A DNA stretch of 64,000 nt from Acidobacteriota bacterium (lineage in GTDB: Bacteria; Acidobacteriota; Thermoanaerobaculia; Gp7-AA8), in the NCBI GenBank assembly GCA_019244185.1, contig JAFATB010000023.1, forward strand, positions 224,001-288,000, in the 5' to 3' direction. A program made the translations under genes and the position numbers. Numbering within the stretch: position 1 is the stretch's first letter; every line of letters starts with the position of its first letter. The notes below the pieces were generated by a model, which saw only the letters and a program-made list of their open reading frames with translations, ran no database searches and was not told the DNA's origin. Positions 40,549-45,335 of the stretch are shown here, in pieces.

Positions 40549-40908
40549 ATGAGCAGGACGATGCGAACTGCTGCTGCCGTGATTCTCGCACTGATCGGGA
40601 CGGTTGCCTTTGCCGCGCCGCCGTCGACGTGCAACCTCGAAGGCGATTACGCGCGCGCGCTCTGTGCTTACCAGCACCGCAACTTCGGCGAGGCGGAGAA
40701 CGGCTTCCGCGCGCTGATGGAGCAGACCGAGCAGACGCCCGAAACGATCCGCGCGACGTACTTTCTCGCGCGGACGCTGATGAAGACTGGCCGCTTCGAC
40801 GAGGCCAGCGCGCTCTTCGTCAGAATCTACTCGCTCGACAAATCGTTTTACGACACGTGGAACTGCGACTATCTCCTCGGCGAATGCAGGAAGGCGCTCG
40901 GTAAGTAA
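40549..40908 (+). CDS. Small secreted TPR protein
   Basis: Signal peptide ending AFA; TPR-like helices (ATYFLARTLMKTGRFDEA); TAATG coupling to the next gene. Alternative start 40561. Confidence 0.7.
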   Translation: MSRTMRTAAAVILALIGTVAFAAPPSTCNLEGDYARALCAYQHRNFGEAENGFRALMEQTEQTPETIRATYFLARTLMKTGRFDEASALFVRIYSLDKSFYDTWNCDYLLGECRKALGK

Positions 40909-42440
40909 TGCCCGCCGCCTCGCAATTCGAACTGCGCCGCAAGCTGCTCCAGCTCGAGGCGCTGTACGACGTCGGACGCGCGCTCAACACGCTGCGCCCC
41001 GAGGACGATCTGCTCGAAGAGCTGATGCACCGCGCCGTGGCCGTGCTCGACGCGACCCTCGGCTTCGTCTTCTCCGTGGATGAAAAGCTGAACATCCAGA
41101 CGCACTTCACCTTCGGCATCGACAACGCGCCGCCGGAACAGCTGCTCGTAGAGCCGCCGATCAAGCAGGTGATGGCCTCGCGCGAGCCGATGATGGTCTC
41201 GGTCTCGAAGTTCCTCGGCGGCGCCGGCAGCGATCTCCTCATCGCCCCGATGATCGCCGGCGACGCGATCCTCGGCATCATCGGCGTCGGCGGCAAGGAA
41301 GTGCGCGGCGCGTCGACGAAAGGCGCATTCGCCGAAGAGGATCTGCGTTTTCTCGAATCGATCGCGTCCATCGGCGGCGCGGCCATCGACAACACGCGGC
41401 GCTTCCACAAGCTCGACCTCGTGCGCGAAACGCTCGAGGACGAGAACCGCGCGCTCAAGCAGCGCATGCTGCGCGAATACTCCGATCGCCTCATGGTGGG
41501 CGACTCGCCCAAGATGCAGCGCGTCATCGATCTCGTCGCGCGCGTCGCCGACTCGCAGGCGAGCGTCATCATCCGCGGCGAGTCGGGCACAGGCAAAGAG
41601 ATGGTCGCACGGCTGATTCACGGCAACTCGCCGCGCAAAGACGGACCGTTCGTCGCCATCAACTGCGCGGCGTTGCCCGAGACGCTGCTCGAGTCGGAGC
41701 TCTTCGGTATCGAGCGCGGCGTCGCGACGGGCGTCGAGGCGCGTCCCGGCAAGTTCGAGCTCGCGAAAGGCGGGACGATCTTTCTCGACGAGATCGGCGA
41801 CATTCCGCTGACGCTGCAGGCGAAGCTCCTGCGCGTCTTGCAGGAGCGCGAGATCGAGAAGCTCGGCGGACGCCGGCGCATCCCGGTCGACGTGCGCATC
41901 CTCTCGGCGACGCACCGCAATCTCGAGGAGATGATCGAGAAAGGGGAGTTCCGCCAGGACCTCTATTACCGATTGAAGGTCGTCGAGATCGTGCTGCCGC
42001 CGCTGCGCGAGCGCAAGGACGACATCCCGAAGCTCGTGCGCTTTTTCCTCGACAAGTACGGCAAGCGCGAAGGGCTGAAGGACGTCCGCATCACGCAGGA
42101 GGCGCTCCAGAAGCTGATGCGCTATCCGTTCCCCGGCAACGTCCGCGAGCTCGAGAACCTCGTCGAGGGCGCGCTGGCGCTGACGACCGATCCGGTCATC
42201 GATCCGGGCGACCTGCTGATGCCGGAGTCGGCGTCGGGAACGGGGGAGCGGGAGCTCTCCGGCGATCTGCCGACGCTGGCCGATCTGGAGGGCCGCTACA
42301 TCGCGCGCGTGCTCGCCTTCACGAAGGGGAACATGTCGAAAGCGGCGAAGATCCTCGGCGTGGACCGGAAGACGCTGTACCGGAAGCGTGACGACTTGTC
42401 CCAACTCGCCCCATCTGCTGAATCTTGGGACATTCACTAG
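40908..42440 (+). CDS. GAF-domain sigma54-interacting Fis-family transcriptional activator
   Basis: GAF; GESGTGKE, INCAA, ESELFG, FLDEIGD, FRQDLYYRL, PGNVREL; HTH GNMSKAAKILGVDRKTLYRK; the GAFTGA loop reads GVATGV. Confidence 0.93.
   Translation: MPAASQFELRRKLLQLEALYDVGRALNTLRPEDDLLEELMHRAVAVLDATLGFVFSVDEKLNIQTHFTFGIDNAPPEQLLVEPPIKQVMASREPMMVSVSKFLGGAGSDLLIAPMIAGDAILGIIGVGGKEVRGASTKGAFAEEDLRFLESIASIGGAAIDNTRRFHKLDLVRETLEDENRALKQRMLREYSDRLMVGDSPKMQRVIDLVARVADSQASVIIRGESGTGKEMVARLIHGNSPRKDGPFVAINCAALPETLLESELFGIERGVATGVEARPGKFELAKGGTIFLDEIGDIPLTLQAKLLRVLQEREIEKLGGRRRIPVDVRILSATHRNLEEMIEKGEFRQDLYYRLKVVEIVLPPLRERKDDIPKLVRFFLDKYGKREGLKDVRITQEALQKLMRYPFPGNVRELENLVEGALALTTDPVIDPGDLLMPESASGTGERELSGDLPTLADLEGRYIARVLAFTKGNMSKAAKILGVDRKTLYRKRDDLSQLAPSAESWDIH
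42397..42432. promoter_or_regulatory. Candidate enhancer (UAS) TGTCCCAA-N20-TTGGGACA
   Basis: 8-bp inverted repeat that also reads as two adjacent TG-N13-CA 17-mers; ~170-200 bp upstream of the -24/-12 promoter and followed by an AT-rich tract. Confidence 0.55.
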
Positions 42441-42600
42441 TAAATTTAACAAAATGAGCAGCTTGCAAGTGGCGCGCGGCGGATTCAAGGCGAATTGTGG
42501 CGAAATGCCGCAGGTGCTCATCCGGTCACAAAAAGCGGCTCTCTCGTGTAAACTGCGCCGGAACATGCACTTAGGCGTCGTTTCGCGAAGCTGGCGCACG

Positions 42601-42616
42601 TGGCAGTCGCGTTGCT
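42601..42616 (+). promoter_or_regulatory. Sigma54 -24/-12 promoter TGGCAGTCGCGTTGCT
   Basis: Fits TGGCA-N6-TTGCW with exact GG-N10-GC spacing; lies directly downstream of the activator gene. Confidence 0.75.
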
Positions 42617-43286: not shown

Positions 43287-43639
43287 CGGATGAATTGAGA
43301 GTCGCGGTCGATCGGCGCGGTCCGGACGGCGCGGTGCTGTACACGAAGGGCTACATCAACAACGTCGGCGGCGAGGAAATCGCGAACCGCGCGTACGAGA
43401 TGATGGACGCCGGCGTGCGCACGCTCCTGCTCAACCTGCGCGAGACGAAGATCGTCAACTCCATCGGCATCAGCATCCTCATCGAGATCATCGAGAAGAT
43501 GATCGACAAAGGCGGCCGCATCGCCTTCTGCTGCCTCACGCCGGTCATCCTCAAGACGTTCCAGATCATGGGGCTCGCGAACTACGCCTCGATCTTCGCC
43601 GACGAGGAATCGGCCGTGAGCGAGCTCGGCCTGAAGTAG
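43283..43639 (+). CDS. STAS anti-anti-sigma factor (RsbV/SpoIIAA-like)
   Basis: LLLNL...IVNSIGI (phosphoacceptor Ser), FQIMGL, ATGA overlap with the upstream stop. Confidence 0.9.
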   Translation: MTDELRVAVDRRGPDGAVLYTKGYINNVGGEEIANRAYEMMDAGVRTLLLNLRETKIVNSIGISILIEIIEKMIDKGGRIAFCCLTPVILKTFQIMGLANYASIFADEESAVSELGLK

Positions 43640-43682
43640 CCCGTTCCGCGGTTTCCCCTTCCTGATATTCTCCTGCGCGCCT

Positions 43683-45335
43683 ATGCCCCCGGTCCGCTCG
43701 TTCACCGACCTTCTGCATGCGTTGCAGGCGATCGAACGCTCGTCGGCGGCCGTGCAGGGGCCGCTCATCCTCGACGCCTTCGCGCGGCACACGCGCTTCG
43801 ACGCCGGCGCGCTGTATCTGCGTGAATCGCGCGGCTCGGAGCTGCGTCTCGCCGCGAAGTCGCGCCACTTCGTCGCGCCGGAGATCCTCGACGCGCAGGC
43901 GCGTGCCGAGGAGTTGCTCGAGCCGAGGCCGATGCTGGTGATGCCGCTGCAATCGCAGCGCGAGCCGTTCGGAATCCTCGCCCTCGGCACGCTCGACCAC
44001 GTCGCGCACGACAGCGACGGTGCCAGCGAAGAAGAACTGGCGTTCATCCGCGCGGCGACGGCGTTTCTCTCGACGCTGATCACGAATCAGCGCCTGCTGC
44101 AGGAGACGCGCGAGGGCGACTTTCAGCTCAAGTACCGATTGTGGGAGCTCGAGTCGCTGTATGACATCGGCCTCTCCATCGCCTCGACCCTCAATGTCGA
44201 CGAGCTCGCGGACGAGATCCTCTTCCGCATGATCTCGCTCACGAACGCGCGGCGCGCGGCGCTCTTCCTGCGCGAGCCGGCGGGCGGCTTCACGCTCTAT
44301 CGCTCGTTCGGCGAGGTGCGCGAAGACTTTCTCGAACGCGAGCTGAGCCAACAGCTCATGCGCGAAGGAAAGCCGCTGACGTTCGAAGGCGGCGGCGACT
44401 GCCTCTTCCCCGAATGCGAGACGTTCGTCGCGGTGCCGATCAAAGGCAGCAACGACGCGGTCATCGGCGTCCTCGCCGCGGCCGATCGCGAGACGCGCGA
44501 GGGCGGCATCGGCGCGTTCGAGGACAACGAGCTGCGACTCTTGTCGCTCTTCGCGAACCAGGTCGCCATCGCGCTCGAGAACGCGCGTCTCCACCGCGAG
44601 GCGCTGCTCAAGCAGGCCATGGAACGCGAGCTCGAGCTCGCGGCCACGATCCAGCGCGACATTCTCCCCAAAACGATTCCGACCGTCGAAGGCATTGACA
44701 TCGCCGCGCTCTCGCGTCCCGCGCGCCAGGTCGGCGGCGATTATCACGCGTTCTTCCTGCGCGACGGCGTGCTCACCGCGCTCGTCGCCGACGTCGCGGG
44801 CAAGTCGATGCCGGCGGCGCTGCTTGTGTCCGCGCTGCACGCCGTGCTGCAGCTGCTGTTCGCGGAAGGGCGCGAGCTCGGCGAGATCGCCACGGAGCTC
44901 AATCGCCACATCCACAGCTGGTCGGCCGAGAACAAGTTCGCGACGATGATCATGGTCTCGATCGATCCCGAACACGAGACGCTGCAGTACGTGAACGCGG
45001 GACACAACCCGTGCTATCTCCTGAGCGACGGCCGCATCGATCAGATGAAGTCGCATGGCCTCCCGATCGGCATCCTGCCGCAGACGCGCTACGCGACGCA
45101 GACGCGCCCGTTCCCGGCCGGTTCCGCGGTCGTGCTCTACAGCGACGGCATCACCGAGGCGGAGAACGTGGCGGGCGAAGAATTCGAGAACGAGCGCCTC
45201 GAAGCGCTGCTCCGCGAGCACGCGGACGCGCCGACCGCCGAACTGCGCGACCGCATCGCCGAAGCGGTGGACGGCTTCGTGGGCGAAGCGCCACAGAAAG
45301 ACGACGAGACGCTCGTCGTCGTACGACGCGCGTAA
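43683..45335 (+). CDS. GAF-GAF-PP2C (SpoIIE/RsbU-like) phosphatase
   Basis: RELELAATIQ, VGGDY, ADVAGK, NAGHN, LYSDGITE, DDET motifs; two GAF-like regions. Confidence 0.92.
   Translation: MPPVRSFTDLLHALQAIERSSAAVQGPLILDAFARHTRFDAGALYLRESRGSELRLAAKSRHFVAPEILDAQARAEELLEPRPMLVMPLQSQREPFGILALGTLDHVAHDSDGASEEELAFIRAATAFLSTLITNQRLLQETREGDFQLKYRLWELESLYDIGLSIASTLNVDELADEILFRMISLTNARRAALFLREPAGGFTLYRSFGEVREDFLERELSQQLMREGKPLTFEGGGDCLFPECETFVAVPIKGSNDAVIGVLAAADRETREGGIGAFEDNELRLLSLFANQVAIALENARLHREALLKQAMERELELAATIQRDILPKTIPTVEGIDIAALSRPARQVGGDYHAFFLRDGVLTALVADVAGKSMPAALLVSALHAVLQLLFAEGRELGEIATELNRHIHSWSAENKFATMIMVSIDPEHETLQYVNAGHNPCYLLSDGRIDQMKSHGLPIGILPQTRYATQTRPFPAGSAVVLYSDGITEAENVAGEEFENERLEALLREHADAPTAELRDRIAEAVDGFVGEAPQKDDETLVVVRRA

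Follow-up and report, generated by a model that had tools for sequence, protein, structure and literature searches.

What does a phospho-serine partner switch control when no sigma factor gene lies beside it, and what turns its genes on? The question is raised by a six-gene cassette in a 64,000-nucleotide (nt) stretch of DNA from an Acidobacteriota bacterium (contig JAFATB010000023.1, positions 224,001 to 288,000; hereafter the window), the G+C content of which is 60-69%. All cassette genes lie on the plus strand between positions 40549 and 45335 and encode, in this order, a TPR protein, a NifA-like activator, a hydrophobic protein of 56 amino acids (aa), an RsbW-type kinase, a STAS protein and a GAF-GAF-PP2C phosphatase. 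Pfam names five of the six proteins, none of the six reaches an NCBIfam equivalog cut-off, and two genes on the minus strand, DUF2520/Rossmann (divergent) and enoyl-CoA hydratase (convergent), set the limits of the cassette (Table 1). An earlier, sequence-only reading had listed these parts, and each was found again at the same position and on the same strand by Pfam analysis and by reading of the sequence. We propose, with moderate confidence, that the cassette has two layers, namely a sigma-54 activator that would transcribe the switch operon and a phospho-serine partner switch whose target would be encoded elsewhere. Comparison of relatives indicates that the first of these connections, by which the activator drives the switch operon, is very probably correct.

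The comparison was based on the kinase, for which 1084 relatives were retrieved at E <=1e-3 out of 1141 candidates, the 120 that were listed being 84-100% identical; the named nearest relatives were from metagenome-assembled genomes (MAGs) designated 'Thermoanaerobaculia bacterium' (Acidobacteriota). An alignment built from 26 of the 120 listed relatives served as query in a genome scan, and the best 80 of 116 matching stretches constitute the loci compared here (L-numbered below). All are contigs of Thermoanaerobaculia or unclassified Acidobacteriota MAGs, bar one 2.3-kb contig labelled Gemmatimonadaceae. Protein domains were assigned with Pfam and equivalogs were judged by the curated NCBIfam cut-offs, while gene order was counted by tblastn of the window proteins against the 80 loci followed by distance criteria, a locus being counted only where its contig left room for the gene concerned.

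The order of the cassette is kept within the Thermoanaerobaculia loci. The gene for the 56-aa protein lies directly 5' of the kinase gene in all 80 loci, the STAS gene directly 3' of it in 75 of 75, and the activator gene 300-520 nt 5' of it in 67 of 67. A TPR gene precedes the activator in 61 of 62 loci under a strict criterion, the exception (L031) possessing a TPR gene and a split activator match. The phosphatase gene adjoins the STAS gene in 57 of 64 loci and is shifted 1.6-3.8 kb downstream in five more, where the intervening DNA (L047, 1900-5650; L049, 10800-13700; L055, 3400-5150; L066 and L068, 10800-12400) carries unrelated genes, including a Ser/Thr-kinase-like gene on the opposite strand and a secreted protein; in L029 (6500-10300) a riboflavin-synthase-like gene and other unrelated genes follow the STAS gene. 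No insertion was found between the activator and the peptide-kinase-STAS block in the loci examined. The flanks are syntenic as well, both upstream (isoleucyl-tRNA synthetase (IleRS), an SLT/LysM protein, a protein of no assigned family and DUF2520) and downstream (enoyl-CoA hydratase, a Na/Ca exchanger, PAP2, a radical SAM protein and a Rieske protein). Median identity to the window proteins across the loci is highest for STAS (85%), the activator (83%) and the kinase (79%), all three above IleRS (75%), and is lower for the phosphatase and the enoyl-CoA hydratase (70% each), DUF2520 (67%), the TPR protein (65%) and the 56-aa protein (64%), it being understood that selection of loci by kinase similarity may slightly favour the kinase in these medians.

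Two contigs of one MAG (L010 and L017) both carry the peptide-kinase-STAS region, with 78% nucleotide identity over 774 nt, which means that the genome has the region twice or that the bin is mixed.

The promoter region was examined in an alignment of 79 sequences (the window and 78 of the 80 loci) that begins 60 nt before the end of the activator gene and runs up to the kinase start. The sequence at 42601-42616 is the sole exact match to TGGCA-N6-TTGCT within the window, and one match of this kind does not exceed what chance would give (three or more one-mismatch matches turned up in 24 of 100 shuffles). In the alignment, the strict form TGGCA[GA]-N5-TTGC[TG] is present in 70 of the 79 sequences and the relaxed form TGGC-N7-TTGC occupies the same place in every one of them, so that the -24/-12 promoter assigned by the sequence-only reading is well founded. 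Since both strands of the loci (2,368,398 nt in all) contain TGGC-N7-TTGC only 97 times, nearly all of its occurrences are the cassette promoter. In the 40 sequences caught by the pattern, the start codon of the 56-aa protein is located 33 nt past the strict promoter match.

The repeat resembling an upstream activator sequence, also described earlier, proved to be real and to consist of a main dyad and two weaker ones that lie inside the 3' coding end of the activator gene. Palindromic pairs average 5.18 of 7 in the main dyad and 3.63 and 2.84 of 7 in the weaker dyads across the 79 sequences, against 1.71 in control 17-mers. In the nine sequences caught by a strict pattern, 104-106 nt separate the main dyad from the -24 element, and the dyad form, TGT-N11-ACA, resembles what we take to be the NifA site (TGT-N10-ACA), being one base longer in its spacing. 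The Hamming distance between site A and the main dyad is 6.00 within a locus and 6.79 between loci, a value as low being reached in none of 2000 shuffles; this likeness fits one protein reading both sites, and shared ancestry of the loci can inflate it. Neither the promoter nor the main dyad rises above chance in a single window, and their weight rests on conservation in relatives. It is this conservation, together with that of the gene linkage across 78-80 species-level relatives, that upholds the earlier proposal of an activator wired to the switch operon; gene set, gene order, promoter and dyads are thus established at the level of sequence comparison.

Table 1. Positions of the cassette genes, their regulatory sites and the bounding genes in the window.
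Feature	Position	Strand	Evidence or remark
DUF2520/Rossmann gene (divergent)	39795-40634	-	longest open reading frame
TPR protein, 119 aa	40549..40908	+	Pfam ANAPC3/TPR_19, E 6.5e-8 and 4e-6
NifA-like activator, GAF - AAA+ - Fis-type helix-turn-helix (HTH)	40908..42440	+	Pfam, NCBIfam
Two weak TGT-N11-ACA dyads	42397-42413, 42416-42432	+	inside activator 3' coding end
Main dyad TGTGGCGAAATGCCGCA (TGT-N11-ACA), candidate upstream activator site	42496..42512	+	about 105 nt 5' of the -24 element
Conserved block GTGTAAACT	42546..42554	+	between main dyad and promoter; exact in 57/79 sequences
-24/-12 sigma-54 type promoter TGGCAG-N5-TTGCT	42601..42616	+	strict form in 70/79 sequences
56-aa hydrophobic protein, operon gene 1	42650..42820	+	80/80 loci; Shine-Dalgarno GAGGGGGG at 42638-42645
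RsbW/SpoIIAB-type GHKL serine kinase, 145 aa	42849..43286	+	HATPase_c_2 (PF13581), 5e-18
STAS protein with a single domain, 118 aa; presumed substrate and antagonist of the kinase	43283..43639	+	PF01740, 6.5e-10
GAF-GAF-PP2C phosphatase, RsbU/SpoIIE type, 550 aa	43683..45335	+	two GAF_3 stretches; SpoIIE/PP2C (PF07228), 1e-47
Terminator-like G+C hairpin with T run	45327..45345	+	overlaps phosphatase stop; consensus match only
Enoyl-CoA hydratase gene (convergent)	45346-46152	-	

Several further elements of this region were considered. The weak dyads fall within the last 15 codons of the activator gene, where the Leu-Ser-Gln and Trp-Asp-Ile codons give the inverted arms TGTCCCA and TGGGACA; because conserved codons form these arms, constraint at the DNA level and at the protein level may overlap at 42397-42432. 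The AT tract named in the sequence-only reading is present after the activator stop in the window, yet it is not conserved across the 79 sequences. The conserved block GTGTAAACT is a possible site for a DNA-bending protein; the IHF consensus is matched in this block in some loci only, and no IHF site is claimed. A hairpin that might mask the Shine-Dalgarno sequence in the 5' leader (42624-42675; -13.1 kcal/mol, z -0.51) was rejected, 55 of 200 shuffles being as good. An Rfam scan of 40000-46000 at E <=1 gave one sub-threshold snoRNA match on the opposite strand and no RNA family, and a scan for sigma-70-type promoters in 40200-45700, including the DNA 5' of the TPR-activator pair, gave no site. 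Terminator-like sites in the region number seven against 3.4 expected, and the operon probably ends at the hairpin that faces the convergent enoyl-CoA hydratase gene. At the other boundary, the longest DUF2520 reading frame overlaps the TPR start by 86 nt; the true DUF2520 start probably lies further in, because orthologues match just 233-278 of its 279 residues.

The activator carries the features of a sigma-54 activator, namely an AAA+ domain with Walker A and B motifs and a HTH domain accompanied by upstream dyads and a -24/-12 promoter. In Pfam it matches GAF_2 (7e-10), Sigma54_activat (PF00158, 8e-69 over the full profile), AAA_lid_14 (1e-22) and HTH_8 (1.7e-11). Its best NCBIfam match is nifA (TIGR01817; 382.3 bits, under the cut-off of 528.85), and its best plasmid matches are NifA/FhlA, at 37-43% identity. 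Walker A (GESGTGKE) and Walker B (FLDEIGD) are intact and invariant in 54 sequences, in keeping with a highly conserved AAA+ core. The L1 loop (residues 271-276, 41718-41735) reads GVATGV rather than GAFTGA, and does so in all 71 orthologues long enough to judge. The TPR gene joins the activator gene through an overlap of stop and start (TAATG), and its product contains four cysteines and an N-terminus, MSRTMRTAAAVILALIGTVAFA-AP, that by eye resembles a Sec signal peptide.

Considering the variant loop, it might be argued that activator and switch genes are neighbours only, the operon being served by another activator or by a promoter that is not of the sigma-54 type, the GVATGV protein having lost sigma-54 activation and the gene order reflecting core synteny. 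The syntenic flanking genes across the class and the missing GAFTGA phenylalanine agree with such a view, which we nevertheless regard as very unlikely: the dyads begin inside the activator gene and the main one stands about 105 nt 5' of the -24 element, as in the usual cognate geometry; GVATGV shows no decay, all 71 orthologues having it within a highly conserved AAA+ core; and insertions have split STAS from phosphatase in five loci, and never the activator from the peptide-kinase-STAS block. The loop itself has a precedent in Desulfovibrio vulgaris DVUA0100, which also has GVATGV and is predicted to serve sigma-54 promoters (PMC4641369). Its authors, from regulon prediction alone, see in the variant loop no bar to activation (PMC4641369). 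Taken together, the loop and the conserved promoter of the cassette would form a second and independent comparative case for a functional GVATGV loop.

The switch proteins were then compared with their characterized counterparts. The kinase matches Bacillus subtilis RsbW (PDB 6m36, E 5.8e-7) and SpoIIAB (1th8) among structures, and stays under the NCBIfam cut-offs for both RsbW (55.8 against 145 bits) and SpoIIAB (43.9 against 135 bits); no match was found among plasmid records. Residues E50, N54, D88, G90, G92, G112 and G114 are invariant and presumably belong to the N, G1 and G2 boxes. The kinase gene overlaps the STAS gene by 4 nt, and in an alignment of the STAS protein with SpoIIAA (1th8_B, E 1.8e-8) the serine of VNSIG stands opposite the DS of MDSSG, which we take to include the phospho-serine of SpoIIAA. 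This STAS serine is situated in a stretch fully conserved in 79 sequences, and almost the whole length of the protein is conserved. Structural matches of the phosphatase are RssB (3es2), SiaA-like 6k4e, Rv1364c (3ke6) and SpoIIE; its motifs GGDY, ADVAGK, SDGITE and DDETL align with SGDF, ADVSGH, SDGILD and DDIAL of RssB, the aligned aspartates being those to which we ascribe metal binding. In NCBIfam the phosphatase domain scores best with SiaA, reaching 56 bits where the cut-off is 700. These alignments support the view that the switch proteins keep their catalytic and phospho-acceptor residues.

The remaining operon product, the 56-aa protein, is encoded by a genuine gene: column entropy at codon positions 1, 2 and 3 is 0.61, 0.29 and 1.21 bits, which is a coding pattern. 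It has no Pfam or NCBIfam match, its family comprises 23 clusters of ≈55 aa among 1.84 billion representatives, and in an atlas search its own cluster alone scored near 0.9. An AlphaFold2 model (mean pLDDT 67) places helices at residues 3-38 and 44-55. In 68 sequences N29 and T30, in the middle of the hydrophobic helix, and P43 and W45, at the turn, are invariant. Polar pairs within membrane helices are often points of helix-helix contact; any role of this protein in the circuit is a guess.

According to the two-layer reading, the activator would sense a ligand, the nature of which can only be guessed, through its GAF domain, bind the TGT-N11-ACA dyads at and just past its own 3' end and spend ATP in order to open the sigma-54 promoter, from which the 56-aa protein, kinase, STAS protein and GAF-GAF-PP2C phosphatase would be transcribed as a single operon. 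In the second layer, the kinase would phosphorylate the conserved STAS serine and the phosphatase would strip the phosphate once a signal reaches its own GAF domains; STAS in the unphosphorylated state would then bind the kinase, thereby freeing whatever the kinase holds. The output would be a target encoded elsewhere in the genome, perhaps a kinase-held sigma-70-family factor. Such a factor is the direction in which we lean, and it constitutes the least certain step.

As had been noted from the sequence, no sigma gene lies nearby. Pfam found no sigma-70-family or sigma-54 domain in the 52 window open reading frames (ORFs) scanned, which were picked by length and by G+C content at third codon positions (GC3), nor in 52 ORFs of six loci (≈10 kb on each side in five diverse loci and the region after STAS in L029); a choice by length and GC3 is one that short or atypical genes could escape. 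The inserts of the five split loci, judged by ORF listing without a Pfam scan, contain no sigma factor. The partner encoded alongside that characterizes RsbW, a sigma-70-family factor, is consequently missing here, as judged by position only.

These results bear on a different assignment of the output, in which STAS rather than the kinase is the effector, as with Vibrio SypA and Pseudomonas SiaC, and controls a non-sigma target, for example a second-messenger enzyme, the kinase and phosphatase merely setting its phosphorylation state. STAS is the most conserved cassette protein (median 85%) over nearly its full length, as would suit more than one binding partner, and no sigma gene was seen among the nearby ORFs scanned; high conservation is, however, equally expected from fitting kinase and phosphatase alone, and no candidate target was identified. 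SypA, for its part, acts downstream of SypE on a target that is not known (PMC10120452). A lead is also provided by longer proteins with a related kinase domain, for which 91 matches were found. Thirteen of them (P0149-P0161, 38-44% identity) are GAF/PAS class III nucleotide cyclases with the kinase domain C-terminal, the cassette itself having three GAF domains; Pfam analysis of seven of the 91, including four of the 13 cyclase fusions, gave the order GAF, PAS, cyclase, kinase where all four are present. The other fusions comprise one kinase-STAS protein (P0148, 65% identity), five PP2C fusions (28-30% identity) and proteins mostly of 500-780 aa with a C-terminal kinase domain, some with AAA_16. 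The fusions show this kinase clade in use alongside non-sigma partners, which is a lead only and no evidence on the cassette, and the cyclase fusions carry the kinase domain, not STAS. We judge STAS as effector to be possible, if rather unlikely; it ranks as a close second to the kinase-held sigma factor. Longer forms of STAS (11 matches) have the appearance of gene calls that were extended or merged at loci of the same kind, and beyond P0148 they added nothing.

A further alternative, the feedback loop put forward in the sequence-only reading, concerns the relation between the two layers. The kinase or STAS might bind the NifA-like activator or sigma-54, forming an anti-activator in the manner of NifL/NifA or PspA/PspF, so that the activator-driven operon would limit or lock its own expression. 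The activator and switch genes are inseparable (67 of 67 loci), the activator is NifA-like and NifA is reportedly inhibited by the GHKL-domain protein NifL, and the activator GAF domain resembles the second GAF domain of the phosphatase (26% identity, E 2e-12), through which one signal could reach both layers. Set against this, the role of the activator as the transcription factor of the operon fully explains the linkage, none of the results lends support to a contact between switch proteins and activator or to feedback of STAS or the kinase on activator or phosphatase, and we know of no RsbW-type protein that binds AAA+ activators. Co-folding of the activator (residues 1-445, 54-row alignment) with the kinase (52 of the 54 rows used) scored 0.00 in two runs without controls and counts neither for nor against binding. 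We therefore consider such feedback improbable, and it seems just as doubtful that the phospho-serine switch, with kinase or STAS acting on the activator or on sigma-54, gates enhancer-dependent transcription in an autoregulatory loop, or, if it did, that the GVATGV loop and the 56-aa membrane protein would be parts of a specialised contact. The action of PspA on PspF is mentioned in PMC4641369.

The two-layer reading, which we continue to prefer, has to be set against several points that weigh on the other side. The L1 loop of the activator lacks the GAFTGA phenylalanine, and the GAFTGA motif expected of sigma-54 activators is thus not found. This phenylalanine is needed for sigma-54 contact in PspF-type activators, because of which activation of sigma-54 by a GVATGV protein is not assured. 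The linkage is best read as retention within one clade, without repeated independent association, because all 80 loci belong to one class and their flanking genes are syntenic; the evidence for the wiring is wholly comparative and comes from this single class. Two loci, L029 and L050, are without a phosphatase gene within 3.7-4.3 kb downstream. Kinase and phosphatase activities, and partner switching as such, are drawn from knowledge of the families. Among the window ORFs scanned, to which this search was limited, there was no rpoN, and the proposed sigma-70 target has no positional support because no sigma-70-family gene was seen among the ORFs scanned within ≈10 kb.

How far the cassette departs from known systems determines what is new about it. 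In the B. subtilis modules RsbU-RsbV-RsbW-SigB and SpoIIE-SpoIIAA-SpoIIAB-SigF the same three protein families are found, with an aligned phospho-serine and the same kinase motifs, whereas the cassette has no sigma gene in the operon or within ≈10 kb, has GAF sensors on its phosphatase and a sigma-54 promoter in place of the SigA/SigB promoters reported for B. subtilis, and scores far under the NCBIfam equivalog cut-offs. The RbaV-RbaW-RbaY set of Rhodobacter capsulatus, a member of a different phylum, is said to have no linked sigma-54 activator or small hydrophobic protein and a different phosphatase architecture. It is likewise a Gram-negative set whose cognate sigma factor was not found, with STAS as the proposed determinant regulator, and the paper also cites switches of Streptomyces coelicolor and Bordetella (PMC3999984). 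Non-canonical STAS roles and switches without an identified sigma factor are reviewed in PMC8256260, and RsbW-like domains with targets not known are covered by PMC12826045. Pseudomonas aeruginosa SiaABCD likewise combines a PP2C phosphatase, a kinase and a phosphorylated partner with an enzyme, not a sigma factor, as output; the gene for its target, the diguanylate cyclase SiaD, is part of the operon, whereas a target gene is absent from the cassette (PMC8457831, PMC7647112).

Among activators, NifA (with NifL) and FhlA share the domain order of the cassette activator, which differs from NifA in falling under the nifA cut-off, in its GVATGV loop and in the lack of nif genes. The syp cluster of Vibrio fischeri, the nearest precedent in design, is reportedly an 18-gene polysaccharide locus. 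There, SypE is one protein containing kinase, receiver and PP2C domains and SypG is a response regulator, whereas the cassette has three separate proteins, no receiver domain and a GAF domain as sensor of its activator; the cassette operon consists of the switch and the 56-aa protein only and ends at the phosphatase, the glycosyltransferases of the window being more than 15 kb away, whereas polysaccharide genes form part of the syp locus. The architecture thus differs from that of syp, as had been said of it. What the two have in common is a sigma-54 activator that turns on STAS together with RsbW-type kinase and PP2C activities, with a non-sigma target (PMC10120452, where sigma-54 is named in the title of reference 22). 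DVUA0100, set against the cassette activator by description only, is similarly a one-component activator with GVATGV; its predicted regulon is plasmid type III secretion, and its N-terminus is a sensing domain described as unknown, not GAF (PMC4641369).

To call the cassette an undescribed signalling system, as in the sequence-only reading, consequently overstates the case: both partner switches without a sigma factor (PMC3999984, PMC8256260) and a sigma-54 activator that transcribes switch genes (syp; PMC10120452) are already in print. Literature searches for the cassette itself found no description. What is new is the architecture, in which a GVATGV GAF activator is combined with a 56-aa protein at the head of the operon and with a kinase, a STAS protein and a GAF-GAF-PP2C phosphatase that are separate from one another, as well as the phylum and the very high conservation across the class.

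Elsewhere in the window, the gene for a PKD-domain protein (826 aa) precedes that for an RHS-repeat protein of 1803 aa (2876-10787), and the 1.4 kb after the RHS-repeat gene has the lowest G+C content of the window (0.60). In the ORF at 57732-58529 the C-terminal part contains a HepT-like ribonuclease domain (E 7e-20), and the two genes of a toxin-antitoxin pair may here have been read as a single ORF.

The Thermoanaerobaculia are common, almost uncultured Acidobacteriota of soil and sediment, and to our knowledge nothing is known of their signalling. The GVATGV loop, found together with a conserved sigma-54 promoter, bears on how strict the GAFTGA contact is, and if the switch did act on the sigma-54 machinery, it would represent an undescribed kind of anti-activator. 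Because the cassette is compact, with six genes and one promoter, it can be rebuilt in a laboratory host, where the output of a partner switch that lacks a linked sigma factor could be sought. The cassette occurs in each of the species-level relatives among the best 80 matches, and its conservation exceeds that of an aminoacyl-tRNA synthetase; this makes it a probable core decision circuit of the class.

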